From positions 17,656-81,655 of the forward strand of contig CAMMZC010000008.1 in assembly GCA_946529215.1 (NCBI GenBank): a stretch of DNA of 64,000 bases, in the 5' to 3' direction. Every line of letters starts with the position of its first letter. The first letter of the stretch is position 1. Below the pieces are notes generated by a model. That model had not been told where the DNA came from. It saw only the letters and a list, made by a program, of their open reading frames with translations, and did not search any database. This DNA comes from an uncultured Clostridia bacterium (GTDB lineage Bacteria; Bacillota; Clostridia; TANB77; CAG-508). Shown here piece by piece: positions 5,173-63,663 of this stretch. Both the position numbers and the translations under genes were made by a program.

Positions 5173-5186
5173 CTTTTTTCCTCCTT

Positions 5187-9845: not shown

Positions 9846-9929
9846 AATTTTTCCTTTCCTTTCTTAGGCACAAATAGTAAAAAAATATTTTTTTATTTAT
9901 ATATTTCTTCCATACTCTCCTACATTTTA

Positions 9930-9958
9930 ATATTACAACCATATTTTTTTAAAGTCAA
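9930..9958 (-). promoter_or_regulatory. Sigma-A-type promoter for the 5187..9845 gene. On the minus strand it reads TTGACT-17 nt-TAATAT.
   Basis: Reverse complement of 9921-9960 is tattgactttaaaaaaatatggttgtaatattaaaatgta. It lies about 85 nt upstream of the ATG at 9845 and downstream of the terminator at 10142-10177. Confidence 0.45.
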
Positions 9959-10141
9959 TATAGCGTTTTTTATAGCATTTAGAATATACTCAAATTCTTT
10001 TTACGGAAATAGCTTTGTAACTTTTTTGTTTATTTTATTTACATTTTCTTTACATTTTTGTAACAAAGCAATTATATATTTCTCTTTTTATTTAGGGAGA
10101 GTTGAACTTTAATAGGAAAATTTCGATTTTTCCTATACAAT

Positions 10142-10177
10142 AAAAAAAGTTGAACGATAATTCGTTCAACTTTTTTT
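10142..10177. terminator. Bidirectional rho-independent terminator. It is a perfect 8-bp GC-containing stem (gttgaacg/cgttcaac) with a 6-nt loop, flanked by A7 and T7. It ends the 10183..14730 transcript.
   Basis: aaaaaaagttgaacgataattcgttcaactttttttatt read directly. The stop codon of the upstream minus-strand gene is at 10183-10185. Confidence 0.8.
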
Positions 10178-10182
10178 ATTTA

Positions 10183-13100: not shown

Positions 13101-14730
13101 CATATCCATTTGGAGGTGTTACCTCATAAACTCTATATGTTCCATATTTTAAATTTTTTAAAGTTATTGTAGATGGATATACTTGTGCATTTTTAAAGCT
13201 ATTTTTATAATTATATGCTCCATTTTTTCCACTTAGCCATCCTTCTGATGTTTTAATTTTAAATCCTGCTGAAATTTCTTTTTTAGTATCTCTATCTACT
13301 TTTCTTATTGTTAAATTTCCAACTGTTTTTTTGTTTTTATATGTTTTTGTAACACTTGTTGTTTTTAAACTTACAGTAGCTGTTCCAAAGTATACACCTT
13401 TTTTATTTTTCTCTCCTGGTATAGATTTATATCCATTTTGAGCAGATAAATCATATCCATCTTGACTTATCACTTCCCAAATTTTATATTTACCAAATTT
13501 TAAGTCCCATAATGTAATTGCTCTATAACCACGAGGTACTATTTTACCATTATTTATAAGTATACTTTTTGAATTATCAACAGTATAATATGTCTCTCCT
13601 TTACCAAAAGAATTGTTATATGTATAATGTCCATTATTTCCACTTAACCATCCTTCTGATGTTTGAATTTTAAATCCTGCTATTAATCCAGTTTTAGTAT
13701 TTTTGCTATCTACTTTTTGAATTGTTAAATTCCCATTACTTTTTACATTAAATTTAACTGATTTATTTTGTCTTGTTTCTCCTGGCTTAATAAGTATAAT
13801 ACCTTGACCATGTCCTTTTCCACCATTTCCAGACCAAAAGTCATTTTTAGCTAAAAATAGAATTCTTGCACTTAATACACTTGAGCTAGCATTAACTGTA
13901 ACATTTTTAATTTTTGTTCCATCTGTAACTTTTATATAAAAATTACTATTACTTTTAATTTTTGATATTTGTTTTGTACAAGCTTTATCTGAATATATTC
14001 TTATTTTGTTACCTGCAATTGTTCCATTAACTCCTGTAACAGTTAAAGATACACTATCACCTGTAACTTTTGCTTTAAAAGGTCCATAAGTATTTGCTGC
14101 ATATTCGCTTACTTCTTTTGCACCTGTGATTTCAGCACTAGCTTCTCCTGTTGAATTATTTGAAAAATTTATAGCTTCTTGACGTAGTTTTTTTGCTGCC
14201 TCTTTTGCTTCTTTTTCTTGATGTGAAAAATAATTGTCAATACTGTATTTGTTTTTTTCATTTTTCCAATTATTTTTTAGGAATCCATCACCAAGTGCAT
14301 TTAACCATGTATTCTTATATGACCAAATTGCGATATTTCTTGATGACATTTTATTGCTTCCATCTTTTAAATACATTTCCCTTCTATAATTACCTTTAAA
14401 TAATATATAGTTCATAATTACATTTGCTTTTTTAACAACAGTTTTTCCTGTTCCAATACTTTTAGCAGTTCTTCCATTTATTTCTATTATATCAGTAACT
14501 TTATATTGTCCTCCAGAAAATCCAGTTTTATGTTCAAAACAGAAAGTATCATTTCTTCCTCTTGAAAATCCTCCATTTAATTGAACTATATCACCAATTT
14601 TACCATAATCTTTTATAGTATCTGCTTGATTTAATCCATAAGTTGTTGCATTTACTTCACTAGCAAATAATACTATAGTTGTAAGTATTGTAATAATAAT
14701 ACTTAAAATAAAACTTTTTTTAGTTTTCAT
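10183..14730 (-). CDS. Giant (1515 aa) surface adhesin with a signal peptide, an N-terminal Cys-containing domain (candidate thioester domain), tandem Cna-B-type repeat domains, and a C-terminus 'VPPTG' + TM + KKYAVK.
   Basis: Signal peptide MKTKKSFILSIIITILTTIVLFASEVNA. Motif TFCFEH. Repeated '...GKYKIWEVISQDGYDLSAQNGY' and 'GTYRVYEVTPPNGYDLSAQQGY' Cna-B-type motifs. Hydrophobic C-terminal anchor with a basic tail. Paralog of the partial gene at 1..5172. Confidence 0.8.
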   Translation of the reverse strand: MKTKKSFILSIIITILTTIVLFASEVNATTYGLNQADTIKDYGKIGDIVQLNGGFSRGRNDTFCFEHKTGFSGGQYKVTDIIEINGRTAKSIGTGKTVVKKANVIMNYILFKGNYRREMYLKDGSNKMSSRNIAIWSYKNTWLNALGDGFLKNNWKNEKNKYSIDNYFSHQEKEAKEAAKKLRQEAINFSNNSTGEASAEITGAKEVSEYAANTYGPFKAKVTGDSVSLTVTGVNGTIAGNKIRIYSDKACTKQISKIKSNSNFYIKVTDGTKIKNVTVNASSSVLSARILFLAKNDFWSGNGGKGHGQGIILIKPGETRQNKSVKFNVKSNGNLTIQKVDSKNTKTGLIAGFKIQTSEGWLSGNNGHYTYNNSFGKGETYYTVDNSKSILINNGKIVPRGYRAITLWDLKFGKYKIWEVISQDGYDLSAQNGYKSIPGEKNKKGVYFGTATVSLKTTSVTKTYKNKKTVGNLTIRKVDRDTKKEISAGFKIKTSEGWLSGKNGAYNYKNSFKNAQVYPSTITLKNLKYGTYRVYEVTPPNGYDLSAQQGYDKKNNWVDFGTAVINSKNTNVTKQYNNQQKISIKGYVWIDQKTVKSDTYNSLYDPSLEAKSRVAGVKVRLKDKKTKKAIKVGNKDYVLTNANGEYIFDKLISQSQLKDYYVEFDYSGLNSLKETYKDAQGKEHKYIKYIPVAFNSAIANQIVKNGSRAIMDNVAVKDVDLKGIATTYKGTKDETTYGLSGNLFNKLMEGAVLNNINLGIKEIPKANYSLSENLEYVKINIRGFDYTYRYGMQGDTSKVAAPTVNWQKVGSIRGYTANIYPSEIVYKSNNSNEELKVDVGYRIDITNTNVINDANLYKENALHISKLTNTFDNNRYTLNDGNWKAEGNNTAQYNKPIADIGVNKTATVKINFSVNRKAIDDILEHPNGIIEKYPTTVNSIGYHKYTRNDYSWEGKTILKANQQHQTIEESRSSSAPYLIFRLGEERVISGRVFEDRVVTNDGQKLGNGVYDNGEKAVSGVKVELLDISGNIANINTLSVNDINKLNVSQLYRVINTANNTKKAVISTAMAVTDEKGEYTFGGVVPGYYFLRFTYGNGKQEIKDLEGNTINKEWISKIDGTEIDIKNYKSTIVKNESAKNGLKNGNDSWYRLLGDVNSSVAVDNLNTRIAVNSGTLQNIMAGTAKLAITVENSPNNSTELKGAQTQAQQEISDGNNTANVKVEYLNETLALNKFEGLNLGIIEMPKQEAKLEKIITNIKLTNTQNNLEINGNPETDKLQGVSDLGDMNNINGGSSYVRAELLDELIYGSTLELTYAIKVTNISDVNYYNNEYYYFGEADPNKEVTLVVNELVDYLDETLQFDQEKSSKLQFEVVTDSNLSQDDELAKTTVIKLNNWNSKLYTEKNTARANNNVKTSDSATIVAHRIIPQTDEDLELLNRARLIKVTNGTGNSSDNNEQVLIIKPTIPSEELTQARMTIVPPTGADRQMIIIYTVAGVVALAMLSAGVVVIKKYAVK

Positions 14731-14750
14731 TTAAAATCCTCCCTTCACTC

Positions 14751-17700
14751 TTATATTTCAATTTTTTCTATTAGTAACTTTTTATTTATTAAATATGCTA
14801 GTCCGCAGATAATTATTATAACAGTTAATGTTAATGTAACATAACTTACTGCTGTACCTGTTTTTACACCTATTATTGCATCTGCTGATCCTGCATTTAC
14901 TGTATCTTGGTTATTTTTATCTGTTGTGGTATTTGGTATTCCAAAGCTGTTATAAGCTGCTTCAATTTCTGCTTTGTTGTTTGTAAGTCCTGTATTAGAT
15001 TCTGTCATTTTCTTTGTTAGAGTTAATGTAACTTCTTCTGTCTCTCCTGGCTCTATTATTGTATCTGCAAGACTTGACGTGTATACATTGTTTCCTTTTT
15101 TATACCAATCACTATTAATAGCTGAATTAAACATTAATGATGATGGCAAATAGTCAACTATTGATTTTGCATATCCTGCAACTTCTCCAACATTTGTAAC
15201 TTTTAATTTATATTCTATTACAACATTTGAATCACTTAATTCTTTTGATGGAATTTCTACCTTAGCTAAGTTTTGGTCTTCATAGTCGTAAGTCTTTGAG
15301 CCATTTTTATTTGTTATAATTATCTTACTTATTGTCTTTTCAAGTTTTAGACTGAACGTTTTAGCTTCTGTAAGTCCTAAATCTATGTCTATTACATCTT
15401 GTGTAAGGTTTATGCTATCTGTAAATGCTGCGGTTATTTCTTGATCATTTATCATTCTTGAAGCTTTGACTGCATCTGAATTTATTGATTCATCTATTCC
15501 ATCTGCTTTATATGATGTAACCATATATTTATCTGTGTCATATTCAAATGTAACTATATATTTTCCTTTTGAAAGATTTGATAATTCATAAGTTCCGTCA
15601 CTGCCTGTTGTAGTTGTTATCTCCTCATTTTCATATGTTGCTATTTTATTTGTAACTACATTAATTGCATATACTTTTATTCCTTCTAATAATTCTTCTT
15701 CATCATCTCTTAAACCATCATTATTTTCGTCTTTCCATACTGTTCCTGTAATTGTATATGTTTCTGTGTTTTGATCTCCATAATCAATATCATCTGAATC
15801 ATCTACATTTGGTTCATCCGAATCATCATCTTGCTGATCATCTATATCATCTGAAATATCATCTTGATCAACTTCTTCATCTTTTTCTTCTTCTATTTTT
15901 ATATAGTATTCATTTGTATTTGTTTCATCTACCAGTCCTATATTTCCATATACTAATACTTTGTTTCTTAATTTTAGTATACCTGTTTCTAATGGTAGGT
16001 TGTCTGAAACTTTTGTAGTTATTTGAAGAGTATATTCTTCTGATTGTTTTATACCTAAGTTTTCTATTACAACAATACTATATTCATTATCATCTTCAAA
16101 ATATGGTTCTATTTCATATTCTGTTTCTGCATATTGTTTTCCATTAAGAGTAACTGATTCAATTTCTAGATAATCAGAAATCATTGTTTCTATTCTTAAA
16201 TTATCTGAATCTACATTTCCAATATTTTTTATTTTTGCTATATATGTAATCGTATCTCCTGATTGAACATATCTATCTGTATTTTTAGATGTAGTTGTAG
16301 TAGACAATTGTACTTTTATTTTTTCCGTACTTACATTATCTGTAACTAAATTAGATCTATACACTGAATTATTTTTATCTTTTGCTTCCAATCCTATTTG
16401 TGCATATGTTAATGTTTCTGTAGGTTGTTTTATTGTTGTTTGTAGTTTTATTGTAGCTTTGTCCTTTGGCTTTATAGATTTTATTGTAAATGTCTTTGTA
16501 TTACTTGGAACTTCTTCTGTAGTCTCTCCAGAATGATATTCTATACTATCTATTGAAATTAGATCATTTTCTTTAATTGTTATCTGTATATCTTTTTGTT
16601 CAGAATTTGATATATTATTTACATCTGCAAAATATAAACATCTTTGTCCGTTTTCAAGCTCAGTAACTATATCTCTTCCTACAGGAATAATATTTATTGT
16701 TAATGTAGCAGGTACAAATTTATTTGAAAATTCTTGAGTTTTCGTTTCTCCTTCTACTACTGTAACAGATAATTTTGTAGATTCTGTTTTTATTTCTGTT
16801 AAGTTTTCTTTTACTTTTACCTTATATTTTAAAATTATATATTCGTTTTCATTTAAACTAACATTACTTTTTGTAAGAACAGTATCTGCTTTTTCAATAT
16901 AATATGGTTCATCATATGTATAGTCTCCTGATTCTTCATTTACCCCTGGATATTTTGGGTTAATATCTAATAAAATTGTATTTTCTGGTATAGTTGCTTT
17001 AATTGTTGCGTTTTCCATCTTTTGACTTCCCGAATTTGAAACCTTAACTGTATATTCTATTATTTCTCCCGCTTTTACTTCATCACCTTGTTTTATTTCT
17101 GTTCCTTGAACTTTTGCTGTTAAACTGGTCGTTATTTCTGCTACTTTTCCTGTAAATAGAACTATTTTTGTAGATTCTGCTTGCTTTTGGGTAGTACTTA
17201 AGTTGTTTGTATATGAAACTTTGTAGAAAGTTTCTGTACTTAGATTATATGGTAAATTCTTTGCAATATTTATGTCATAACTAAAGTTTATTTTCGCACC
17301 ATTTGCAAGTGAATTAATTACTATTAAATAGTATTTAGAATCTTTTGTGGCATCTTCTTTCCAATTGTTTTCTGCTTTGCTAATACTTGTTGTAGGATTT
17401 TCTACAGATGTATAATAAACTTTAGCATTTTCCATATTTGTTCTTATTTTACTTGTTCTTTCTATTTTTCCACTTATATTTGCTATTTTTCCAAGTATTG
17501 CTATATTTGATATATCTGTTTCTTCATTATTTACTACTTGCATTTTTACTGTTGCATTTTTAGCTTCTGCATTACTACTAAGTTTAATTTCTTTGTCAGT
17601 TTCTTTTCCAAGTGTTGTAATATTATATTCTTCTATATTGTTTGTTAATATCATTGAATTTTGTGCTACTATATTAATATTAACTTTTTGCTCTCCTTTA

Positions 17701-19700
17701 TCTGCAAAGCTAGTAGCATTTTCGTTTGTATATGTCATAACAATTTCTTCTAAACTATTAGTTGCCATCTTATCTAGTCCAACATTTGCAGTTATATTTA
17801 GTGTTGCACCTTTTACAGCATCACCCTGATAATTTTTTTGTTCTCCTGTTAAATTAATTGTTATAACTTCTTGTCCGTTTTCTTGATTTATTTTAAAATT
17901 ACCTTTTTCTAAGTTTAGACCATTTCCATACATTAAACTACATTTTGCATATATTTTATTTATTTGTTTTGGTAATTTAATTTTTACAACTGGATTTTTA
18001 AATAAATCTCTATATTCACTATCTGTCTCTAATACTGCTGTTATGTGCATTTCTTGTTCTGCTGATGTTGTAAGTGTAATTGGTTCTACTTTTAAACTTG
18101 CTCTTGATTCTGTTTCTTTTAAAGTTATTGTAGAATTTGATGTTGCTGTATTTGTCAAACCATCATTTTTTGTATATGTTACTTTATTTGAATCTTTTAT
18201 TTTAGTTAATTCTTTTATCTCTGTTCTTTTATAATTAGTCTTTTCTATTGTTTTTGTTACTTCATATTTTAAAACTCCATTATTTACAGGTTTTGATGTT
18301 TCTATATTTAACACTTTTGCACCTGATTCAAGAGCAACTATTATATTTCCACTTTCATCTGTTTCATTTGTGTTTGTAATTGTTTTAATATTACTTGCTT
18401 GATCTTGTATGCTTATATTCCATTGACTTCCCAACACATTTTCAATATTTGCTTTGTTAAATTTAATGTTTTTGTATATGACTGATAATTCTTTTTCTTC
18501 TTCGCCTTTTAGTGCTTTTGACTCTTGTTCTAATATCTCAAGTTTTTGTAATACACTTGCATAATCTATATTAACTTCTGTTTTTGTTATATACTCTTTT
18601 TGCTCTCCAGCATATATTTTTCCTTTTGCTATTTCTGATTGAGTTTCTTTTTCTGTTATAGTCGCAAAATTTTCTTTATTTTCTGAAATAGTCGTTTCTA
18701 CACTTTTAGATAATACTTTATCATTATATGTATAGATTGAAGAATTGGCAGTAATTTTTGAATTTGTAATTTCGACTGTTTCTGGATATTTTAATGTAAC
18801 TACAAATTCATCACTTGCATTTTTTTGCCATACTATTTTGTTATTTTGACCATTTGCAACTCTTATAATTAACTTCCCATCTTTATATTCATAATTTGAT
18901 GATAAAAATTCTTTATCTCCATTTGTTGAAGCTGTTGTCCTTTTATGTACTGTAACAGTTTCAGCTTCTGCTGGAATATTTAATTCTATATTTGTATCTC
19001 TTACAGGATAAGAATTATTTTCTATTTTACTTTTAACTAAAAGTTGAACTATTTTTTTGTTTGTTCCATCTTCATTATATGTAGCATTTGTTAATACTTC
19101 TGCACTTAATACTGAATTTATATTTTCAGGATATGTCCAATTTAAGTTAAGCTCAGCTTTGCCTTTTATTTGTGCACTATTTTTACTATTAACATAGTTT
19201 CCTGTTAAATTGATTATAGATGTTCTTGATAAATAGTCTATATCGAATTCTTGCAAATTAGTAAATTCTATTCCAACTTCTACTGTTTTTATATCACCAT
19301 CATTTATTTGTTTAAAAGTCAGTGATTTTTCATCAATGTTACTAATATATTCACTTTTTGTATCTGTTTTAAATTTAAAATTTGCATTCTCATCTAATTC
19401 TATTTTTGCATTAGATAAATATCCATCTTTCTTAACACCTAACTCAAATGTAACTTTTAAATCTTGTTTGTCTATCGCAGCTGTAGTATTTAGTGTTTTG
19501 TTGTTTGCAAAATATGCTTTAAATTCGATATTTTGATTATTTACTTCTGCTGTATCAATAGCATAGCTTATCGAACTTGACCCAATTTGAGCCATCTGAA
19601 TTAAGTTTGAGCCAACCATACTTAAATCTGCCATAGTAATCGTAAAGATAGACGCTATTGCACAAGTTTTTTGAATAATTCTTCTTCCTGTGGTGTTCAT
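14751..19700 (-). CDS. Giant (1649 aa) cell-surface protein and paralog of the 5187..9845 gene. It has DUF11-type modules, an SdrD-B/Cna-B-like domain and an acidic low-complexity linker. The C-terminus is 'GVKTGTAV' + TM + KK.
   Basis: The N-terminal region is homologous to the 5187..9845 product (IEFKAYFANNK... versus VQFRAYFKNGEE...). DUF11-like motif ITYIAKIKNIGNVDSDNLRIETMISDYLEIESV. Region 'WKDENNDGLRDDEEE...GTYEL..GKYIV'. RBS AAGGGAGGAAAAG. There is 20 bp to the next gene. Confidence 0.8.
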   Translation of the reverse strand: MNTTGRRIIQKTCAIASIFTITMADLSMVGSNLIQMAQIGSSSISYAIDTAEVNNQNIEFKAYFANNKTLNTTAAIDKQDLKVTFELGVKKDGYLSNAKIELDENANFKFKTDTKSEYISNIDEKSLTFKQINDGDIKTVEVGIEFTNLQEFDIDYLSRTSIINLTGNYVNSKNSAQIKGKAELNLNWTYPENINSVLSAEVLTNATYNEDGTNKKIVQLLVKSKIENNSYPVRDTNIELNIPAEAETVTVHKRTTASTNGDKEFLSSNYEYKDGKLIIRVANGQNNKIVWQKNASDEFVVTLKYPETVEITNSKITANSSIYTYNDKVLSKSVETTISENKENFATITEKETQSEIAKGKIYAGEQKEYITKTEVNIDYASVLQKLEILEQESKALKGEEEKELSVIYKNIKFNKANIENVLGSQWNISIQDQASNIKTITNTNETDESGNIIVALESGAKVLNIETSKPVNNGVLKYEVTKTIEKTNYKRTEIKELTKIKDSNKVTYTKNDGLTNTATSNSTITLKETESRASLKVEPITLTTSAEQEMHITAVLETDSEYRDLFKNPVVKIKLPKQINKIYAKCSLMYGNGLNLEKGNFKINQENGQEVITINLTGEQKNYQGDAVKGATLNITANVGLDKMATNSLEEIVMTYTNENATSFADKGEQKVNINIVAQNSMILTNNIEEYNITTLGKETDKEIKLSSNAEAKNATVKMQVVNNEETDISNIAILGKIANISGKIERTSKIRTNMENAKVYYTSVENPTTSISKAENNWKEDATKDSKYYLIVINSLANGAKINFSYDINIAKNLPYNLSTETFYKVSYTNNLSTTQKQAESTKIVLFTGKVAEITTSLTAKVQGTEIKQGDEVKAGEIIEYTVKVSNSGSQKMENATIKATIPENTILLDINPKYPGVNEESGDYTYDEPYYIEKADTVLTKSNVSLNENEYIILKYKVKVKENLTEIKTESTKLSVTVVEGETKTQEFSNKFVPATLTINIIPVGRDIVTELENGQRCLYFADVNNISNSEQKDIQITIKENDLISIDSIEYHSGETTEEVPSNTKTFTIKSIKPKDKATIKLQTTIKQPTETLTYAQIGLEAKDKNNSVYRSNLVTDNVSTEKIKVQLSTTTTSKNTDRYVQSGDTITYIAKIKNIGNVDSDNLRIETMISDYLEIESVTLNGKQYAETEYEIEPYFEDDNEYSIVVIENLGIKQSEEYTLQITTKVSDNLPLETGILKLRNKVLVYGNIGLVDETNTNEYYIKIEEEKDEEVDQDDISDDIDDQQDDDSDEPNVDDSDDIDYGDQNTETYTITGTVWKDENNDGLRDDEEELLEGIKVYAINVVTNKIATYENEEITTTTGSDGTYELSNLSKGKYIVTFEYDTDKYMVTSYKADGIDESINSDAVKASRMINDQEITAAFTDSINLTQDVIDIDLGLTEAKTFSLKLEKTISKIIITNKNGSKTYDYEDQNLAKVEIPSKELSDSNVVIEYKLKVTNVGEVAGYAKSIVDYLPSSLMFNSAINSDWYKKGNNVYTSSLADTIIEPGETEEVTLTLTKKMTESNTGLTNNKAEIEAAYNSFGIPNTTTDKNNQDTVNAGSADAIIGVKTGTAVSYVTLTLTVIIIICGLAYLINKKLLIEKIEI

Positions 19701-43468: not shown

Positions 43469-43930
43469 TTATTCCTTTTCTTTTGCAAACGTTCCTTTTT
43501 CCAGCATTTCTTTTTCAGCTTTTAAAAATCCTCTTTTTAGAAGAACAATAACTCTTTCTAGTGGAATATCTGGATATCTTTTTATAATATCTTTTATTAT
43601 TTCACTTGGAATTTCAGTTATCTTTTCTTCTTGTCTTCTTTCTTCTGCTTTTATTAGTTCATCTGCTTGTGAATAACCTGTTTTAAAAAGTTCAGAAATT
43701 TCATCTTTAGAAAGACTATCATAACTTCTACTAAAATGTATTATTCTATTTAAAAAATTTTCTAGTTTTATTCTTTCAGTATTTAAAGACCTATCTAATA
43801 TTTTATCTTTGAGAGCTGTATATCTTTTAATACATTCTTCTAATGAATCTAGGTTTGGATACTTACTCACCAAAGACTTTACACTATCAATTATCATTCT
43901 TTCAGCAAATTGTTTATCATTATTTTTCAT
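43469..43930 (-). CDS. Hypothetical charged helical protein (153 aa) inserted between fusA and tuf.
   Basis: Clean ORF in the 500-bp fusA-tuf spacer. No recognisable motif. Confidence 0.5.
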   Translation of the reverse strand: MKNNDKQFAERMIIDSVKSLVSKYPNLDSLEECIKRYTALKDKILDRSLNTERIKLENFLNRIIHFSRSYDSLSKDEISELFKTGYSQADELIKAEERRQEEKITEIPSEIIKDIIKRYPDIPLERVIVLLKRGFLKAEKEMLEKGTFAKEKE

Positions 43931-46965: not shown

Positions 46966-47379
46966 TTATTTTTTTGGTTTCTTTGCTCCATACTTCGAAC
47001 GACCTTGCATTCTGTCTTTAACTCCTGCTGTATCTAATGTTCCTCTAATAATGTGGTATCTTACACCTGGAAGGTCTTTTACTCTTCCTCCTCTTATTAA
47101 AACAACACTGTGTTCTTGTAGGTTATGTCCTATACCTGGGATATAAGATGTAACTTCATAACCATTTGAAAGTCTAACTCTGGCTACTTTTCTTAAAGCT
47201 GAGTTTGGCTTTTTAGGTGTTACAGTTTTAACTACTGTACATACTCCTCTTTTTTGTGGACTTCTTGCATTTGTTTGTCTTTTATTTTTTGAGTTATATC
47301 CATGTTGAAGAGCTGGTGCAGTTGATTTTGTAACTCCTGTTTTTCTTCCTTTCCTTACTAATTGATTAATTGTTGGCAC
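46966..47379 (-). CDS. rpsL: 30S ribosomal protein S12.
   Basis: [13 protein letters not shown]...[10 protein letters not shown] is diagnostic of S12. Confidence 0.96.
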
Positions 47380-47615
47380 TTAAATTTCACCTCCTATTTT
47401 TAAAATGTGACAAATCTCGCTTTGAAAAAAGCGTAAAGATTCGTCGACGCGAAAAATTGTTTCACAATTTTTCTGTGCATCGTTTTTTAATTTTTAGAAA
47501 ATAAAATTTTTTAAAAATTAAAACCGCTACGGAAATAACTATTTCTAGTTTTTTCCATAACGGTTATATTTTATCACGTTTTATTACATATGTCAATGGT
47601 TTTTGAGGATTTTTT

Positions 47616-48113
47616 TTACCTCTCGCCATTATCTTTGTCTCGTAGACTATCAAATTTCATTTTTTCTTCTGGTGCAAAATTTTGCTCTCTTAAAATTCCA
47701 ATTTGTATTATCATTTTTTTTAATGTTTTTATCATTTCTACCGCAACATATTTTACATTTATTTCACTTTGATCTTCAACAAGTATATAATTAAATATTG
47801 CAGCATATCCATCATATTCATCTTTTAATTCTTTTATTGATTTTAATATATATTTTTTATCTGATATTCTATATTCTTTTCTTAAACAACTATAATCTTT
47901 CAATTCTTCTTTAGTAATACTTCCTTTAAAAGCTTTAATTAATTCTAACATTTTTTCCAAAGTTATTATCATTTCTTGTGCAAAATAGTTAACATTAATT
48001 TCACTTTGGTCTTCTTTAAGTATATTATTATTAAATATTGCTTCAAAACCATCATATTCACTTTCTAAGTAATTTAATTGTTTCAATTTTTCTTCTATTT
48101 CTTCAATTTCCAC
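47616..48113 (-). CDS. Hypothetical cytoplasmic protein (165 aa, GTG start) made of two tandem copies of a roughly 75-aa domain.
   Basis: Internal duplication EYDGFEAIFNNNILKEDQSEINVNYFAQEMIITLEKM... versus EYDGYAAIFNYILVEDQSEINVKYVAVEMIKTLKKM.... It lies 43 nt downstream of the 1011-aa gene. Confidence 0.5.
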   Translation of the reverse strand: MEIEEIEEKLKQLNYLESEYDGFEAIFNNNILKEDQSEINVNYFAQEMIITLEKMLELIKAFKGSITKEELKDYSCLRKEYRISDKKYILKSIKELKDEYDGYAAIFNYILVEDQSEINVKYVAVEMIKTLKKMIIQIGILREQNFAPEEKMKFDSLRDKDNGER

Positions 48114-48156
48114 TATATCATCTTCTTATTTTACATTAATATTTTCTTATTATTTT

Positions 48157-51100
48157 CTACTTTACACATATATTGCTTTTATCTAAATCTGGTGCAGCTT
48201 CTAAACTGTTTGTAGGTGTAATTGGTTCTACATCAATATGTTCTATTCCTTTCTTAGCCAAATTATCTCTTCTTTTTTGCATTCTTGCTACACGTTCTTC
48301 ATATGCTGATATTTGTTTTATATCTCCAACATTTCCTCTATTTAATGATAAGATTCTATCTTTTGATGGCAAAAATCTTTCTAGTGGACTTTGCATTTTT
48401 CTTATTATTTTTGCAATTAATGTCTCGTGATATGTTCCTTTTATATCAGCAACTTGATATGTATTATTTGCAACAGTAGCTAATTCGGCGATTCTATCTT
48501 TTTGATTAACTGTTAATTCATTTCTATCTAGCCAACTTTGTTCAGCATTTTTACTCTCATCAGTAGCGTTTCTCATATATCCAATATTTCTTGTATCTGT
48601 TGCTATCATAGAACGAAGTGCTTTAAATGAAACCCCTGATAAATTGTCTAAATTATATGTTACATCTATATTGTGAGTATATGGTGATTTAATATATTTT
48701 TGTATTTTCTTTATGTCATCACTTTGTCCTATTTTCTCTAAAATATCATAATGTGTTCCTAATATATTAAAAATGTAACCTTTAATTAAAGCGTCTCTTC
48801 TTTGTGATTCTGCATTAAAAACATCTTTAATAGAGTTTATGATTGTAAAATCTATTTGTACATTACTATTTTTACAAACTTCTATTAATTTATTGATATC
48901 AGGCGAATAAGCTTCTCTGTTGATCACGTCCATAAATTTTTCTGTACTTAATGATGCATAATATATATTTAATTCTGCTGCATCTTTATAAACTTCTTGA
49001 TCTACTTTACGAGAGCGACCAAATAAACCTTCACCTACTTTTATCTTTCCATTTTTGCCTATTGTTATTTTATATGATTTGTTGCCCAAAACATCTTTTA
49101 AATTTTGTGCTTCCTTATCTATATCTATTCCATCATCTAAGTCTACACTTTGAGTTCTTGTTGATTCAGGTCTTAATGTTGATGGTATTTCAGTGGTTGA
49201 AGTTACAGAAGCTTTTGGAGTTTTAGGTATTGTTGATGAAAATGTTCTTGGTTCTCGCGTAGCTGATTTTGGTATCTCTGGTGTTGGATTTTCTTCAGAA
49301 ATAAATGGCTTTACCTTTGACATATTTGATTGCCCAATTGAGCTTATAGTTTCTTCCCTATCTTTTTTAGCTTCTCGTTCTGCTTGTTCTCTTAATCCTT
49401 TTTCAATTTCATCAAATTCAGCTTCAACCCCCATTTCAGTTTTTCCCTCTGCTGGTGTTTGCTCTATTGGTTCTCCTGCTTGTCTATTTAATTCTTTATC
49501 GTTTTTCAATCTCTGCATTATTATTTCTGCTTCATCTTTGCTTATCTTAAATACTCCTCCTATTCTAGATGCTTCAACTGTCTCCTTCCATTGTATCATT
49601 TTTTTATACCATTCTCTGACTTCTTTATAAAACAACTCATCTACAAGTTGCACAATCTTTTTATACTTTTCTTCACTAATATTTTTTCCTCTTTGTGCTT
49701 CAAGAAATTCCTTTACTTTTTTATATTCAATTTTATATATAATAGTATTTGTTTTGCCTCTACCATAGCCTCCTTGATTCATTAAAATTCCTAATCTGCT
49801 TAATTTATTTGTTATTTTGTAATCTAGAATTTCTTCATCAATACTTCCATATTTGAATTCATTTGTCTCGAAATCAAATGAACGTTGATAAACACAATTA
49901 TATTGAAGATCTCCATTTTCTATACGAGCTAATAACCATTGTGTTAACATTTTATCATCTACTTCTACAGATGAATTATGAGTTGACTGTTCTGGATTTG
50001 TTGGTTCTGGTGTTACTTTATTATATACTATTCCATATTCTTCTAGGACTTCTTTAGTTCGTTCTTTGTTTATTAAATTATTTAAATCATAATCCTCAAC
50101 AACTCCTATTTTAACCAACTCAGAAAAAACATTAACTGCCTGATCATAAGATATTTTTAGCTCAACACTCAAATTAGTCACAAATAATCTTTCTCTCTTA
50201 TCATTAAGGCGTTTTGCAACCACTTCCATTGCTTTTTTCATTAAATCTTCTGATACCTTGATTTCTGTTTCATCAGGTTCTTCTGGTTCTGCTTCATCAA
50301 GTTCTTCTGCTTCTATTTCATCAGGCTCTGCTATTTCTGCTTCATCAGGTTCTTCTGCTTCTATTTCATCAGGCTCTGCTATTTCTGCTTCATCAGGTTC
50401 TTCTGCTTCTGCTTCATCAGGTTCTTCTGCTTCTGCTTCATCAGGTTCTTCTGCTTCTACTTTATCAGGTTCTTCTGGTTCTATCAGTTCAACTTCTTCT
50501 TGTAGTTGTTCTAATGATTTTACATCAAAAGTACTACATAAAACTTTAATTTTATCCTTTGAACCGCCTTCAAGATTAGCCATATTTTTTTCATATCCAT
50601 CAAGTTCATCCCATAAATCGCTTAATCTGTCAGGATTTAATTTTTCTAATTCTTTGTCTATTTCAGCAATTCTAGAATTAGCATTTTCTTCCCTTCTTTT
50701 TAAATCACGATAAATACTATCATCTGCTCTTACTTTTCTATTCTCTGCTAATTCAATTAATTCTCTAAACCTTTTTCTGTCATTTTCTAGTGATTTTTTT
50801 TCGGCATTTAATCTATTTATGCTTACTTCTTCTTGTACTTCTGCATTTATTCTATTTTTTTCTTCTTGTATTTTTTCTATTATCTCTTCTGCAAATTCTT
50901 CAATTTCTTGATTTAGTTTTTCTTCAAGCTCAGCTATTTCATCTTTTAACTCTTTTAATTCCTGTTGTCTTTCATCTAATAATAAAGAAATTCTTTCTCT
51001 TCTTTCTCTCTGAATTTTAACAGGATTCTGACTACCATTTGACAAAACATCAGCATTATTTGCTCTATAATTTTCATCATCATTTGCTAAAATATTATAA

Positions 51101-51192
51101 TCTTCTTCTAAGTCTTTCTTATAATCATCAATTTCTTCTTGACGTCTTTCAAATTCCTGAATCTTGCTTTTAATATCTTCTAATTCTAACAT
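48157..51192 (-). CDS. Large (1011 aa) cytoplasmic hypothetical protein. It has an N-terminal coiled coil, an acidic EPDEAEAE repeat linker, a winged-helix-like segment and a C-terminal domain of unknown function.
   Basis: No signal peptide. The first 230 aa are heptad-rich and E/K/R-rich. The repeats are encoded by 24-bp units. MKKAMEVVAKRLNDKRERLFVTNLSVELKISYDQAVNVFSELVKIGVVED resembles an FtsK-gamma / DnaD-type wHTH. GGYGRGKT matches GxxxxGK[ST], but there is no Walker B motif. The RBS is AAGGGAGGAATAT. Confidence 0.7.
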   Translation of the reverse strand: MLELEDIKSKIQEFERRQEEIDDYKKDLEEDYNILANDDENYRANNADVLSNGSQNPVKIQRERRERISLLLDERQQELKELKDEIAELEEKLNQEIEEFAEEIIEKIQEEKNRINAEVQEEVSINRLNAEKKSLENDRKRFRELIELAENRKVRADDSIYRDLKRREENANSRIAEIDKELEKLNPDRLSDLWDELDGYEKNMANLEGGSKDKIKVLCSTFDVKSLEQLQEEVELIEPEEPDKVEAEEPDEAEAEEPDEAEAEEPDEAEIAEPDEIEAEEPDEAEIAEPDEIEAEELDEAEPEEPDETEIKVSEDLMKKAMEVVAKRLNDKRERLFVTNLSVELKISYDQAVNVFSELVKIGVVEDYDLNNLINKERTKEVLEEYGIVYNKVTPEPTNPEQSTHNSSVEVDDKMLTQWLLARIENGDLQYNCVYQRSFDFETNEFKYGSIDEEILDYKITNKLSRLGILMNQGGYGRGKTNTIIYKIEYKKVKEFLEAQRGKNISEEKYKKIVQLVDELFYKEVREWYKKMIQWKETVEASRIGGVFKISKDEAEIIMQRLKNDKELNRQAGEPIEQTPAEGKTEMGVEAEFDEIEKGLREQAEREAKKDREETISSIGQSNMSKVKPFISEENPTPEIPKSATREPRTFSSTIPKTPKASVTSTTEIPSTLRPESTRTQSVDLDDGIDIDKEAQNLKDVLGNKSYKITIGKNGKIKVGEGLFGRSRKVDQEVYKDAAELNIYYASLSTEKFMDVINREAYSPDINKLIEVCKNSNVQIDFTIINSIKDVFNAESQRRDALIKGYIFNILGTHYDILEKIGQSDDIKKIQKYIKSPYTHNIDVTYNLDNLSGVSFKALRSMIATDTRNIGYMRNATDESKNAEQSWLDRNELTVNQKDRIAELATVANNTYQVADIKGTYHETLIAKIIRKMQSPLERFLPSKDRILSLNRGNVGDIKQISAYEERVARMQKRRDNLAKKGIEHIDVEPITPTNSLEAAPDLDKSNICVK
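50269..50485 (-). repeat. In-frame 24-bp tandem repeat (about 9 copies, with a nested 48-bp periodicity) encoding (A)EEPDEAE(A/I) acidic repeats.
   Basis: ttcatcaggttcttctgcttctgc / ttcatcaggctctgctatttctgc units read directly. Confidence 0.9.
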
Positions 51193-51243
51193 TTATATTC
51201 CTCCCTTTATTTCCTCTATTTTCTCATTTTGTCCATCTCTTTC

Positions 51244-51272
51244 ATTTTACCATATTATGTCTACTTTGTCAA
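51244..51272 (-). promoter_or_regulatory. Sigma-A promoter for the 1011-aa gene unit. On the minus strand it reads TTGACA-17 nt-TAAAAT.
   Basis: Reverse complement of the region is tttgacaaagtagacataatatggtaaaatgaaag. It lies between the ftsH terminator hairpin and the ATG at 51192. Confidence 0.5.
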
Positions 51273-51354
51273 ACTAATAAAATTCTTCTGTTGCAATAAC
51301 ATATATTTAATTTATCATACTTCATTTTCAAAAAATTCTTTATATTTATACAAC

Positions 51355-51387
51355 TTAAGCAGGCAAACTAACCATCTGCCTGCTTAA
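51355..51387. terminator. Hairpin terminator after ftsH (11-bp perfect stem).
   Basis: ttaagcaggcaaactaaccatctgcctgcttaa, 3 nt from the ftsH stop. Confidence 0.6.
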
Positions 51388-51390
51388 AAA

Positions 51391-53196
51391 TTATCCTTCA
51401 AAAACTCTATCAAATTCTTCTCCATCGATTTTTTCTTTTTCAAGTAATATTCCTGCAACAATGTGTAATTTGTCAATATTGCTTGATAAAATCTTTTTAG
51501 CCTTATCATAAGCAGTGTCAATTATTTTCTTTACTTCTTCATCTATAATAGCTGCTGTTTCTTCAGAATATGTTTTAGATTGAGCCAAATCTCTTCCTAA
51601 AAATACTTCTCCTTGATCTCCGTCAAACATTATAGTTCCTAGTCTATCACTCATACCATAAACTGTAACCATACTTCTTGCCATTTTTGTAGCTCTTTCA
51701 ATATCATTACTTGCACCTGTAGAAACATCATCTAAAATTAAGCTTTCGGCAACTCTTCCTCCAAGTAAAGACACAATTGTTTCTTCCATATATGTTTTAG
51801 ATATAAATGACTTATCTTCTGTAGGTCTATACATTGTATATCCTCCAGCTGTTCCACGAGGTACTATCGAAATTTCATGTACAGGATCTTGTGTTGGTAA
51901 AAATTTACTTACAACTGCATGACCTGCTTCATGGTATGCTACTAATTTCTTTTCATGTTCATTTCTAACTCTTGTTTTCTTTTCAGGACCCATTGTAACT
52001 TTTACCATAGCATCTTCTATTTCTCTCATTCCTATTTCTTGTAGATCTCTTCTTGCTGCTAAAAGTGCTGCTTCATTTAAAACATTCTCTAAATCTGCTC
52101 CTGCAAATCCTGATGTATTTTTTGCTATTATTTTTAAATCAACATCATCTGATAAACGTTTCTTTCTACTATGAACTTCAAGTATCTGCTCTCTTGCTTT
52201 TACATCTGGAGCTCCTACTACTATTTGTCTGTCAAATCTTCCTGGTCTTAATAAAGCTTTATCTAAAATGTCTGGTCTATTTGTTGCAGCTAATACTATA
52301 ACTCCTTCATTTGCAGCAAATCCATCCATCTCAACTAATAATTGGTTTAATGTTTGCTCTCTTTCATCATGTCCTCCGCCAAGTCCTGCACCTCTTTGAC
52401 GTCCTACTGCATCTATTTCATCTATAAATATAATACATGGCGAATTTCTTTTAGCTTGCTCAAATAAGTCTCTTACACGTGAAGCACCAACACCTACAAA
52501 CATTTCTACAAAGTCTGAACCACTTATTATAAAAAATGGCACTCCCGCTTCTCCCGCAACTGCTTTTGCTAAAAGTGTTTTACCAGTTCCCGGTTGACCT
52601 ACAAGCAATACTCCTTTTGGAATTCTTGCACCCATATCTGTGAATTTCTTTGGATTTTTTAAAAATTCTACTATTTCTTGTAATTCTTCTTTTTCTTCAT
52701 CTACACCCGCTACATCTTCAAATGTAATTTTATTCTTATCTGCTGTATTTACAAGTCTTGCTCTACTCTTTCCAAATGTAAGTGTTTTATTTCCACCTTG
52801 AGATCCATTTCCATTCATCATGAAAAACCAGAATACTAAGAAAATTGCTACTAACCCAAATGGCATTAATAGACTTAGTAGTGTAACCCATATAGATTTA
52901 GATGCACTTTCTATACTAAAGTTTCCTGCTTTTATATCTTCATTGGCATAACTCATAAAACTATCTAAACTAGGTATATTTACTTGTTTTGGTCCTTTCT
53001 GTGATTTTAATGTTACATAAGCAGATGTTCCTTCCGAACTTACCTCTATAGATTCCACATTTTTCTCCTCAATGTTTTCGATAAGTTCTGAGTAAGTCAT
53101 CTTTGAATTTGTGTTGTCTATTATTGATGAAATGACAACAATCAAAATGATTCCGATTATTAGCCATGTTGCTAATGATTTAATTCCGTTTTTCAC
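51391..53196 (-). CDS. ftsH: ATP-dependent zinc metalloprotease FtsH.
   Basis: Two N-terminal TM segments. AAA Walker A GQPGTGKT, Walker [14 protein letters not shown] zinc motif. Confidence 0.96.
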
Positions 53197-53637: not shown

Positions 53638-54627
53638 CTATTTGTATGCAATAAAATGTATCTTCCCCTTATTTACTAAGACCTTTATATTCTTATTTGG
53701 CTTCAAGTACTTATTTCCGATGTTTTTCTCACACATTTTTATGATATCTTCTATATTAATTTTCTCGACATTTTGTGCATTCCCTAGTACTTTAGAAATT
53801 GTATATAATAACATTCTTTTTCTTATTAAAATATCTTTTGTGTTGAATTTTTTAAGATTTAAAATTATTTCTTCGTCAGTTTCTTCTATTTTTATTTCAT
53901 TATAGTTTTCAATAACTTGTTTTTGAATAAATTCGTCTGTTTCTGTTGCCACCTCTGAAAGCCTACTCATTGTTTCTATTATATTAGAATTAAATTCTTT
54001 TTTTACATAAGGCAAAACTATATTTCTTATTTTATTTCTTGTACAATCATTTTCAAAATTAGTTTTGTCAATTCTCGGTTTTAAATTATTCTCTTCTGCA
54101 TACTTTTCAATTTCTGCTCTTTCACATTCTATTATAGGTCTTATATATTTATTATCTCTAATTGGCTCAATCCCTCTTAATCCAGAAATTCCACTTCCTC
54201 TTATAATATTCATTATAATTGTTTCTGCTTTGTCATTTTTATTATGTGCAATTGCAATTTTATTTGCATTTTCTTTTTCTAAAATTTCATCAAAAAATTC
54301 ATATCTTAATTTTCTTCCAGCCTCTTCTAATCCCATTTTATTATTATTTGCATATTTTATAACATCTATTCTTTTTGAATAAAATTTTATATCATTTTTT
54401 TCACAATATTTTTTAACATATTCTTCATCATCATTTGCTTCTTCTCTAATTTGATGATTTATGTGACATGCAATAATTTCAAAATTTAAAATTTTATTTT
54501 CACAAAATTTATTTAAAATATGTAATAAAGAAATAGAGTCTGGACCGCCAGAAACTCCAACTATGACTCTATCTCCATCTTCTATTAAATTATATTTTTT
54601 AATTGTATCTAAAACTTTTTGCTCCAT
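53638..54627 (-). CDS. tilS: tRNA(Ile)-lysidine synthetase, short form (329 aa).
   Basis: PP-loop SGGPDS near the N-terminus. The C-terminal extension of long TilS proteins is missing. Confidence 0.85.
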   Translation of the reverse strand: MEQKVLDTIKKYNLIEDGDRVIVGVSGGPDSISLLHILNKFCENKILNFEIIACHINHQIREEANDDEEYVKKYCEKNDIKFYSKRIDVIKYANNNKMGLEEAGRKLRYEFFDEILEKENANKIAIAHNKNDKAETIIMNIIRGSGISGLRGIEPIRDNKYIRPIIECERAEIEKYAEENNLKPRIDKTNFENDCTRNKIRNIVLPYVKKEFNSNIIETMSRLSEVATETDEFIQKQVIENYNEIKIEETDEEIILNLKKFNTKDILIRKRMLLYTISKVLGNAQNVEKINIEDIIKMCEKNIGNKYLKPNKNIKVLVNKGKIHFIAYK

Positions 54628-61855: not shown

Positions 61856-62554
61856 TTATCTAGAATCATCTTCTCCCTGTATCACTTTAAATCCAAGTTT
61901 AACCTTTTGATTAATCATTAGTTGAATTAATTCTTCAAAATATTTTATTACTTCTTCAACTTCTGTTGTTTCATCTATAGGATAACGTAAAGCCACTCCA
62001 CGAAAATCGAAACTATAATTAGAAAAAGAACTATTTTGATGAAATAATGTTATCGCTTGTTCTTCAAATTTATCGTTTTTTAACGGAGTAGATATTTTTT
62101 TAGGTCTTCTATTATACTTTGCTTTGTCAGGTGCACTTTCTTTTACTCTATAAAATTTAAATAATTCTGACTGCCTCGATTGAATGCCATTAATGCTACA
62201 ATTATGCAGTAATATATTCTTAGCTTTATCATTTAAATTGACTTTTACATCTCCATTATTTAACTTATCAATTAAGTCTCTATTTTGTTCATCTAATTGA
62301 TCATAATCAATCATAATCCAAGCATATCCATTTCCAATTGATAAATATTGATTTTGATTTTCAGGAATATCTCCATTTTTACAATCTCTTTTATTAGCAC
62401 TAGACATTATGGTATCAATCCCCTTATTATTCAAATCAATACAAGCTTTTCTTACAGGTAACTCTATGTATTCACATGAGTCATAACTCCATATTTTCTT
62501 ATAAGCTTCAGGTGAAGATTCTATATCTTTTAAATATCTTTCCATTCTTATCAT
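61856..62554 (-). CDS. Hypothetical protein (232 aa).
   Basis: Clean ORF. No motif recognised. Confidence 0.5.
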   Translation of the reverse strand: MIRMERYLKDIESSPEAYKKIWSYDSCEYIELPVRKACIDLNNKGIDTIMSSANKRDCKNGDIPENQNQYLSIGNGYAWIMIDYDQLDEQNRDLIDKLNNGDVKVNLNDKAKNILLHNCSINGIQSRQSELFKFYRVKESAPDKAKYNRRPKKISTPLKNDKFEEQAITLFHQNSSFSNYSFDFRGVALRYPIDETTEVEEVIKYFEELIQLMINQKVKLGFKVIQGEDDSR

Positions 62555-62607
62555 CTCCTATAATTTATATATAGCATATTTAATTTTAAAAGTCAATTTT
62601 CATTTTA

Positions 62608-63663
62608 TTATACTACAGTGTAATCATCATTATTTTTCAAAATCCATATTATTTCCGTAATTCCTAAGTATCCAAACACAGGAAACAATAATTTTACCAA
62701 ATTTGAAAATCCAAAATTTGAAATTAGCACCCCACTTATGCACATTATTGCCACAAATTGTGGATAACTCTTTTTGTTTTTCGTAATATTTTTCAAAAAA
62801 CTAATTCCAATTGATATTGCTGTTGAAAAAATAGACAGTAAAATCACAATCCCATATATTCCAGAAAATTGTGGAAAATATTTATCTATTATATAAACTG
62901 CTGGCATTTGAATTTTAGAATAATCAGATTCCACACTTGTAAGCACAAGGAAAATGCTCATTGCTAAAACAAAAACAATTCCACCACTAAGAGCCGATAC
63001 AACAGCTATTTGTCTTTTATTTTTAATACATTTTCCTAAATTTACAAGTACAGGTATTACCAAAATCATATTATAACTGCAATAAACTACAGCTTGCAAA
63101 ATCCAATTAAAGCTGTATTTATTTTCAAAGTTCACTTGCCATATTTCTCCACTTCTGTTATATAAATCTTTCAAACTCAAAAATCCAATAATTAAAATAA
63201 CAACAATTAAAATAGGCACAATAATTGAATTTACTCTTTTTACTCCTTCAATATCTTTTATTAAAACAACAAAACATATAACCGATAGAACAATTGCTCC
63301 AATTATTGCAGGAATTTCAAATTGTTGCTTAAAATACACTCCGAATCCTGAAATCATAATATAAAATGTAATTAGCAAAAAAGAATTTACAATTATATTT
63401 GAAATATTACTTAATTTTTTTGAGTGAAAAATTTCTCGCAAAAAACCTTCATACGTATCAATTTTTCTTGTATGTATTATCAAAAATGTTTTATAAATAA
63501 CCATGGAAATAAGTGTGCTACATAATATTAAACCAAATATTCCATTTATTCCAAACCTATAAAAAAACAAATACATTTCTTGACCAGATGCAAATCCTGC
63601 ACCTATTAATGTTCCTATTATTGAAAAAATAAGCATAATGAGCTCCTCTTTTTTTGATTTCAC
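62608..63663 (-). CDS. Polytopic membrane protein (351 aa), transporter-like. It resembles the YkvI / GerAB-type amino-acid-permease superfamily.
   Basis: About 10 hydrophobic segments. An N-terminal GAGFASGQE motif. Confidence 0.5.
   Translation of the reverse strand: MKSKKEELIMLIFSIIGTLIGAGFASGQEMYLFFYRFGINGIFGLILCSTLISMVIYKTFLIIHTRKIDTYEGFLREIFHSKKLSNISNIIVNSFLLITFYIMISGFGVYFKQQFEIPAIIGAIVLSVICFVVLIKDIEGVKRVNSIIVPILIVVILIIGFLSLKDLYNRSGEIWQVNFENKYSFNWILQAVVYCSYNMILVIPVLVNLGKCIKNKRQIAVVSALSGGIVFVLAMSIFLVLTSVESDYSKIQMPAVYIIDKYFPQFSGIYGIVILLSIFSTAISIGISFLKNITKNKKSYPQFVAIMCISGVLISNFGFSNLVKLLFPVFGYLGITEIIWILKNNDDYTVV

Follow-up and report, generated by a model that had tools for sequence, protein, structure and literature searches.

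A hypervariable, mosaic gene pair in a fixed slot between ftsH and rpsL of uncultured gut Clostridia

Results

An orphan gene pair between ftsH and rpsL

The subject of this analysis is a two-gene unit within a stretch of 64,000 nucleotides from an uncultured Clostridia bacterium (contig CAMMZC010000008.1). The whole stretch is referred to as the window, and all positions are given relative to it unless another locus is named. An earlier note made from the letters of the window had drawn attention to the unit, whose two open reading frames (ORFs) we name X and Y:

48157-51192, minus strand: gene X, 1011 amino acids, ATG start
47616-48113, minus strand: gene Y, 165 amino acids, GTG start

Both ORFs lie at the coordinates, on the strand and with the start codons that the note had claimed, and the gap of 43 nucleotides between the stop codon of X and the start codon of Y is correct. 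On the minus strand the gene order is tilS (53638-54627), ftsH (51391-53196), X, Y, rpsL (46966-47379), rpsG and fusA, while gdpP, rplI and dnaB are found further upstream of tilS and ftsH. X and Y are real protein-coding genes that form a lineage-restricted, hypervariable, mosaic pair in a fixed slot.

The pair is narrowly distributed and occupies one slot

Neither X and Y nor six homologues had a meaningful match in Pfam, NCBIfam, PADLOC or PHROGs. Pfam, searched with X, Y and the six homologues at E ≤ 1, contained no match to LXG (PF04740) or WXG100, and NCBIfam gave none for X or Y. PADLOC, run on X, Y and five homologues, returned only noise (E ≥ 0.036). In PHROGs the best value (E = 1.8e-4) fell within the coiled-coil and charged-repeat part of the homologue P0033, with nothing below E = 0.04 for X and Y of the window. 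No relative was detected when the viral contigs of IMG/VR were scanned with an alignment of the conserved C-terminal domain of X (hereafter the C-domain), nor when the GTDB species genomes were scanned with an alignment of X. In an index of 5.8 billion proteins, whole X found itself and one relative (P0002), Y found itself and two relatives, and the C-domain found two relatives. The word-indexed search with whole X was flooded by low-complexity candidates; it was repeated with the C-domain and, exhaustively, with residues 310-1011. This last search, using HMMER over 1.84 billion representatives, recovered eight proteins at E ≤ 0.001.

The X/Y family is very narrowly distributed, being restricted to a small clade of uncultured, low-GC, herbivore-gut Clostridia; the metagenome labels SHIW14, STEW19, XIEF21 and AUXO point to rumen or ruminant-gut studies. 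The proposal that the unit is lineage-specific is borne out, both proteins being orphans to every family library scanned, while the alternative of an unrecognised conserved system finds no support, with just eight relatives among 1.84 billion representatives.

The same ftsH-X-Y-rpsL slot was occupied at every relative locus that could be read (L001 and L083-L092). L001 and L083-L090 each carry parts of tilS, ftsH, an X allele, a small ORF, rpsL, rpsG and fusA, with L087 lacking the small ORF. Thus, of the two regularities that phylogenetic profiling was to look for, residence beside ftsH and rpsL held at all readable loci, but constant co-occurrence of X and Y did not (L087, L091 and L092; see below).

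A scan of GTDB for ftsH gave 80 loci, none of them with an X or Y in the sequence retrieved. The nearest species representatives, uncultured Clostridia with an ftsH 77-85% identical to that of the window, have a different gene order and are therefore uninformative on whether X and Y precede rpsL in their genomes. In L004 and L005 (ftsH 78-80% identical; the closest that retain downstream sequence) other genes follow ftsH, and no rpsL was found within ~10 kb downstream of ftsH in L004, L005 or L007. It therefore appears that the ftsH/rpsL junction is itself specific to the small clade, rather than ftsH and rpsL being a usually contiguous, widespread gene pair into which X and Y were inserted, as had been supposed. 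A search of the literature found nothing relevant on comparable loci.

Deeply diverged, reassorting alleles within a conserved backbone

Comparison of the window with the other loci showed that the flanks of the pair are highly similar in DNA (ftsH 94%, the ftsH-X spacer 97-98%, rpsL 97%, fusA 96.8%) and in protein (ftsH 98-99%, rpsL 100%). Within X, the N-terminal module (N-module) is 65% identical in DNA and 41% (L087/L084) or 72% (L001) identical in protein, and the C-domain is 69% identical or undetectable in DNA and 28-56% identical in protein. Y has no detectable homology at the DNA level. DNA homology to the other alleles ends within X and resumes sharply at the stop codon of Y (47614/47615).

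The two ends of X give discordant pictures of relatedness, as protein identities between pairs of alleles illustrate:

L087 versus L084/L085: N-module 100%, C-domain 35%
window versus L001: N-module 72%, C-domain 28%
L001 versus L087: N-module 42%, C-domain 76%
P0027 versus L085: N-module 20-27%, C-domain 99%

These values indicate that the N and C modules of X reassort independently. Whole parts also come and go. The X of L089 is entirely missing its coiled-coil head. L087, on the 48.9 kb JGI contig Ga0310691_10000941, carries an X with an intact C-domain, followed by a 16-codon remnant and then the rpsL promoter, with no Y at the locus. In two independent assemblies, L091 and L092, Y directly follows ftsH and there is no X. 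Every allele that was read has an intact open frame (433-1011 amino acids) in a genome of 27-35% GC. No border repeats, silent X/Y cassettes or mobile-element genes were found in the window.

In L091, one of the contigs with Y alone, the sequence at 991-1053 of the contig diverges, from ~13 nucleotides past Y, from the rpsL promoter common to the other alleles. Either the region has been rearranged once more, or the departure is an artefact of assembly at the end of the contig.

Nonsynonymous (dN) and synonymous (dS) substitution rates were estimated by a crude Nei-Gojobori procedure, in an AT-rich genome with partly saturated sites, giving a dN/dS of 0.26-0.5 and a dS of 0.5-1.0 for the X modules (dN/dS ~0.26-0.43 for the C-domain) and a dN/dS of 0.5-0.8 (up to 0.79, the highest) with a dS of 0.22-0.58 for Y. 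The flanks had a dN/dS of 0.03-0.08 and a dS of 0.14-0.26 (ftsH, fusA and rpsL/rpsG versus the closest loci), although some flank values overlapped the low end of the X range (tilS, dS 0.54; ftsH versus the more distant L088, dS 0.51). On these estimates X is constrained yet fast-evolving, and in most comparisons its alleles look either older than the backbone or imported by recombination.

Y is an acidic, internally duplicated protein of variable length

As the earlier note had recognised, Y consists of two tandem copies of one domain. The units are helical and ~82 amino acids long (48113-47868 and 47867-47619, minus strand), and the halves are 64% identical over 47 amino acids (E = 2e-16). 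The protein is acidic, with an isoelectric point (pI) of 4.8, and its homologues include P0004 (66% identical) and P0005 (57%). A relationship of Y to X was considered as well and was rejected.

The number of units differs between loci. Two-unit proteins of 165, 164 and 165 amino acids are encoded by the window, L091 and L092, and a single-unit version of 85 amino acids occupies the position of Y in L083-L085 (E = 3.5e-10 to a hidden Markov model, HMM, of the unit). In L001, L089 and L090 the small ORFs at this position encode 123, 162 and 106 amino acids, and their matches to the unit HMM are weaker (E = 0.0097, 0.015 and 0.43). Whatever its length (85-165 amino acids) or divergence, every small ORF at the position of Y ends in Glu-Arg-stop (window 47616-47624; L001, L083-L085 and L089-L092), and the closer Y variants have a (K/T)DN motif a few residues before this end.

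X is a modular protein

X is acidic overall (pI 4.7); the C-domain is basic (pI 8.4), and the remainder of the protein, the N-terminus included, is acidic. Its parts are as follows:

50494-51192, minus strand: residues 1-233, coiled-coil N-module; heptad signal above 200 of 200 shuffles, nearly no Pro or Gly
50263-50482, minus strand: acidic tandem repeat (E)EPDEAEA(E); 24-nucleotide unit, 9.2 copies, 57% Asp plus Glu
50023-50259, minus strand: residues ~312-390, winged-helix-like module 1; homologous to modules of the L087 and L088 alleles
49483-50022, minus strand: residues ~391-570, segment without a counterpart in any homologue; uncovered by every match of the exhaustive search
49750-49773, minus strand: GGYGRGKT string (residues 474-481); fits GxxxxGK[ST], with ~0.013 such strings expected by composition
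49141-49482, minus strand: residues 571-684, linker, charged and then rich in Pro/Ser/Thr (33%); predicted disordered, with a predicted local distance difference test (pLDDT) score below 50
48325-49140, minus strand: residues 685-956, the family-defining conserved C-domain; mixed alpha/beta, mostly helical, pI 8.4

Several features proposed from the letters alone withstood these analyses: the N-terminal coiled coil of ~230 amino acids in the heptad test against shuffles, the nine acidic repeats in the count of 9.2 copies, and the absence of a signal peptide from the large protein in hydropathy profiles. Neither X nor Y has a signal peptide or membrane segment (highest 19-residue hydropathy 0.9 for X and 1.3 for Y), and X contains no sortase motif and, in Pfam, no anchoring or cell-wall-binding domain. 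An LXG-like turn motif considered in the N-module (a G-x-S-x-NP break at residues 53-57) was rejected; its register differs among alleles and the Pfam LXG model is unmatched.

The N-module of the window is one of at least three allelic types, which are independent of the type of C-domain. At the following position, where the window has the unit EPDEAEAE, other alleles have unrelated charged repeats (QRQEAEAER, KAEKEHYEKLAKQ and EGQET). Between repeats and linker, winged helix-turn-helix-like (wHTH-like) modules vary in number from none (P0002, P0026, P0027 and P0030) through one (P0033 and P0032) to three (window and L088). X is thus built from a coiled-coil head, a charged repeat spacer, zero to three winged-helix-like modules, a disordered linker and a globular C-domain of ~270 amino acids.

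Module 1 had been likened to the winged helices of FtsK gamma and DnaD. It is a real module common to several alleles, shared with those of L087 and L088 (tblastn E = 2e-5 and 3e-7) and ending in a conserved ...AKEVLEEYGI.Y motif (...KEVLEEYGIVY in the window), but its wHTH scores are all sub-threshold. The module profile searched against PDB sequences gave E values of 0.07 for MarR, 0.3 for CodY, 0.39 for Lrs14, 0.54 for S25 and 0.62 for FtsK gamma (2j5p). An hhalign comparison with E. coli FtsK gamma, using a query sequence identical to 2j5p, was colinear over 47 columns with a probability of only 9.6%. The winged-helix modules had no Pfam match, PF09397 included. AlphaFold was run on residues 305-1011, where the alignment across the three modules is uninformative. 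Here pLDDT was mostly 28-66, with a single ten-residue block at 72, and the low-confidence model shows helices and no confident wing. The winged-helix or FtsK-gamma resemblance of module 1 is plausible from its sequence but unproven.

The segment at residues ~391-570 holds two more wHTH-like stretches and the GGYGRGKT string, all at low AlphaFold confidence. The string is present as described, but its reading as a P-loop finds no support: the string stands alone, Pfam and NCBIfam give no P-loop family match, there is no other nucleoside triphosphatase (NTPase) feature, and the segment is missing from all homologues. A sub-threshold match to the winged helix SgrR_N overlies it (E = 0.031, residues 462-519), and most simply GGYGRGKT would be read as part of a wing hairpin and not as a nucleotide-binding loop.

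The C-domain is one family with an unrecognised fold

The C-domains of all alleles form one homologous family, with the motifs YKITIG, VPIDFTII.SI, ALIKGY, L.KY, TYNL..LS, Q.DRIA.LA and LLPxPE. The positions invariant across alleles (I, I, D, F, I, Y, L, Y, Y, L) are hydrophobic or aromatic with one Asp, and these columns include no conserved catalytic-looking set. Such a pattern indicates a core that is conserved and a surface that is free to vary.

In the AlphaFold model of residues 305-1011 only the C-domain was confident. Modelled by itself from a nine-sequence alignment, it (residues 685-956) reached a pLDDT of 86.6 and a predicted template modelling score (pTM) of 0.87, and in this model a small beta-meander at the N-terminus is joined by two more strands and some fourteen helices. 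Foldseek gave only noise for the 305-1011 model and detected no structural relative of the C-domain in the PDB (best E > 0.03) or among the viral structures of BFVD (best E = 0.31), a profile search of PDB sequences with the C-domain gave nothing, and these structure searches produced no match to any toxin fold. The predicted fold is therefore unrecognised within the PDB and BFVD, and the description of the C-terminal region as lacking any recognisable motif extends to the family libraries as well as to these structure searches.

The unit has its own conserved promoter

The following signals border the two genes:

~51354-51388, minus strand: stem-loop after the ftsH stop codon; -21.7 kcal/mol, z = -5.5, kept in all aligned alleles
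51244-51272, minus strand: X promoter, TTGACA-17-TGgTAAAAT; 11 of 12 positions match, with a TG extension
51200-51208, minus strand: X ribosome-binding site, AAAGGGAGG; strong, 7 nucleotides before the ATG, kept in alleles
47568-47596, minus strand: rpsL promoter, TTGACA-17-TAAAAT; the -35 box lies ~20 nucleotides past the Y stop codon and marks the downstream edge of the variable region

The unit's own TTGACA-17-TAAAAT promoter is present as predicted, and both hexamers and the entire 17-nucleotide spacer between them are identical in six divergent alleles, within surrounding spacer DNA that has diverged. This invariant spacer (AAGTAGACATAATATGG) hints at a regulator-binding site within the promoter. 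The stem-loop that had been taken for the ftsH terminator is stable and conserved, but it has no trailing U-tract and the terminator scan made no call; we therefore regard it as a conserved hairpin and not as a canonical intrinsic terminator. The same scan found no terminator between Y and the rpsL promoter, and Rfam contained nothing in or near the locus. The rpsL leader (47380-47567), which runs for ~170-190 nucleotides after its promoter, likewise lacks an Rfam match, and its first ~125 nucleotides are conserved at ~89-96% among alleles.

Discussion

A tentative recognition locus and its alternatives

Old recombining alleles, a conserved core beneath a variable surface, a dN/dS that is elevated but sub-neutral and a conserved strong promoter are together what would be expected of a recognition protein under frequency-dependent selection. 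The likeliest arena would be intracellular conflict because neither protein has an export signal. Our preferred reading, which we hold with low confidence, is that the locus is a strain-variable intracellular recognition or conflict locus directed against phages or other mobile DNA. According to this model, X would assemble as a coiled-coil oligomer, its variable C-domain, and possibly also the DNA-binding-like modules, would recognise a component of the invader, and Y would act as a dispensable accessory or modulator. Doubtful, though worth stating, is the more specific proposal that the X proteins make up a new family that acts in recognition inside the cell, as oligomers with an unseen fold, and of which old recombining alleles are maintained in one slot under frequency-dependent selection, with Y as an optional modulator.

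Several observations weigh against a conflict locus. No PADLOC or PHROGs model matches X or Y. The searches revealed no effector domain such as a nuclease, NTPase or protease, which leaves a defence mechanism without the part that would act. As a rule, the systems found in known defence hotspots are unrelated to one another, and are not divergent alleles from a single family. The match to winged helices falls short of significance, and a dN/dS below 1, in itself a crude estimate, would also suit a structural protein under weak constraint. The loci are short metagenome contigs from several strains, some with assembly gaps at the repeats, and the kinship of the strains is inferred from their flanks only. 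Our confidence is kept low by the lack of a nameable effector part and of a matching defence model.

Variability might instead reflect weak constraint. X could be a fast-evolving, non-essential cytoplasmic scaffold, such as a nucleoid-, pole- or division-associated tether, in which the coiled coil oligomerises, the repeats and linker serve as spacers of variable length, and contacts to DNA and to a cellular partner are made by the wHTH-like modules and the C-domain, respectively. Such a role would suit an acidic cytoplasmic protein with a heptad head, a conserved vegetative-type promoter, wHTH-like modules common to several alleles, a dN/dS below 1 and a neighbourhood of housekeeping and cell-shape genes (dnaB, tilS, ftsH, the str operon, mreBCD, PBP2 and minC). 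However, X is missing from L091 and L092, the family is confined to a tiny clade, and the wHTH assignment is not only non-significant but concerns a module that P0002, P0026, P0027 and P0030 do without. Moreover, the dS of X is two to four times that of the flanks and its modules reassort, pointing to old alleles kept or imported rather than to simple drift, and we consider a scaffold rather improbable. Weak constraint taken further would make X and Y young orphans with little or no function, carried at a rearrangement junction beside highly expressed genes. Their extremely narrow taxonomic range, the low-complexity, charged and repeat-rich character of much of X, the dN/dS of Y (up to 0.79), the presence/absence variation of both genes and a second fast-evolving orphan between fusA and tuf (see below) would all be in keeping with this. 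It is nonetheless unlikely, since frames of 433-1011 amino acids remain intact in every allele read from a genome of 27-35% GC, the promoter is invariant, alleles older than the backbone have been retained, and the C-domain, with a dN/dS of ~0.26-0.43, is predicted to fold with confidence.

Two further explanations place X outside the cell or pair it with Y. X might form fibrils on the surface or outside the cell, having left it by, for example, a type VII-like, lysis-dependent or spore-surface route that needs no classical signal peptide, and its coiled-coil head and end domain would diversify under phage or host pressure like the mosaic surface proteins of streptococci. Such a protein could account for the variable coiled-coil head, the tandem repeats differing in unit and copy number, the Pro/Ser/Thr-rich linker and the mosaic alleles in a conserved backbone, as well as for the strong promoter and ribosome-binding site. 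Arguing against export are the lack of a signal peptide, membrane segment, sortase motif or cell-wall-binding domain, of any LXG or WXG100 match at E ≤ 1 and of secretion-system or sporulation genes within the 64 kb window, and the wHTH-like modules, which would be unusual in surface fibrils; we judge it no better a candidate than the young orphan. The least probable explanation in our view is that X is a polymorphic toxin, its C-domain killing competitors or the producer, and that Y is the immunity protein or antitoxin belonging to it. A small co-varying ORF does begin 43 nucleotides past the gene of a large modular protein, the loci with Y alone resemble orphan immunity genes, Y has the highest dN/dS, and a basic C-domain faces an acidic Y. 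Yet no Y accompanies X at L087, where the C-domain is intact and shares 76% identity with its counterpart in L001. The C-domains form a single family whose conserved positions are core hydrophobics, with no conserved catalytic set evident, and there is no match to a toxin, immunity or trafficking family nor, structurally, to a toxin fold. The earlier comparison of the pair with effector/immunity or sensor/effector systems finds no support, given the separability of the genes, the one C-domain family and the want of any match to an LXG, WXG, toxin or immunity family or, in 64 kb, of secretion genes. More generally, the separability of X and Y (L087; L091/L092) and the reassortment of modules are evidence against X and Y being obligate partners, whether as toxin and immunity protein or as a two-component pair, and against their having an essential housekeeping role.

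Relation to known systems

Each of several known systems shares part of this organisation. Type VII toxin/immunity loci of the LXG type in Firmicutes likewise have a helical N-terminus, a variable middle, a strain-variable C-terminus, a small co-varying downstream ORF and orphan small genes; X and Y, however, match no LXG, WXG100 or toxin model, their C-domains are homologous and without conserved catalytic residues, one X locus has no small gene, and the pair sits amid core genes instead of a secretion cluster. The streptococcal M, M-like and PspA/PspC proteins combine a hypervariable coiled-coil head, repeats of variable copy number and a proline-rich linker in alleles shuffled by recombination within a conserved frame, whereas X lacks a signal peptide, sortase motif and choline-binding repeats, has winged-helix-like modules and is predicted to be cytoplasmic. 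The comQXP pherotypes of Bacillus and the agr groups of Staphylococcus, which are hypervariable specificity loci framed by conserved genes, come close in that deeply diverged alleles predating the backbone meet near-identical flanks at sharp borders, but the proteins are unrelated and nothing in X/Y corresponds to a signal peptide precursor, kinase or processing enzyme. The repeated ~75-amino acid module of X is colinear with E. coli FtsK gamma and has several weak winged-helix matches, in the manner of FtsK gamma and MarR, although nothing is significant, no confident AlphaFold model of the region was obtained and the module is optional in the X family. Finally, anti-phage hotspots in core genes resemble the locus in offering a fixed slot whose content is gained and lost between close strains; here the slot holds diverged alleles of one family, with no PADLOC match and no recognisable effector. 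None of the defining features of these families was established for X and Y, and the core domain has no detectable sequence relative and no detectable structural relative in PDB or BFVD, which sets the locus at a distance from known systems.

If the variability reflects recognition under selection, the pair would be a conflict or immunity module made of parts that current libraries do not detect, in gut anaerobes without genetics. It would in effect give gut Clostridia a strain-specific immunity or self/non-self system of a new type. Comparing one slot between strains in metagenomes offers a way to spot candidate conflict loci that escape homology searches, by looking for near-identical flanks around reshuffled, deeply diverged alleles. 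Should the pair prove to be a scaffold under weak constraint or young orphans, interest would be limited to gene birth and turnover beside highly expressed operons. At the least, the locus contributes a confidently modelled domain of ~270 amino acids with no known structural relative in PDB or BFVD.

Other features of the window

A second orphan ORF lies in the str operon, between fusA and tuf (43469-43930, minus strand; 153 amino acids, no Pfam match). Its counterpart in L087 (14632-15087 of that locus) is 54% identical to that of the window, next to a fusA that is 98.8% identical, making it another fast-evolving, lineage-specific gene amid translation genes. Adjacent ORFs of 232 and 351 amino acids at 61856-63663 (minus strand) have no Pfam match at E ≤ 0.001. 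The ORF list shows none of at least 150 amino acids on either strand of positions 1-5186, which may represent a long ORF crossing the start of the window or non-coding DNA. Beside this region, three consecutive giant ORFs (5187-19700, minus strand; 1552, 1515 and 1649 amino acids) with SdrD_B, SpaA or DUF11 domains resemble tandem surface adhesin or pilin-like proteins.

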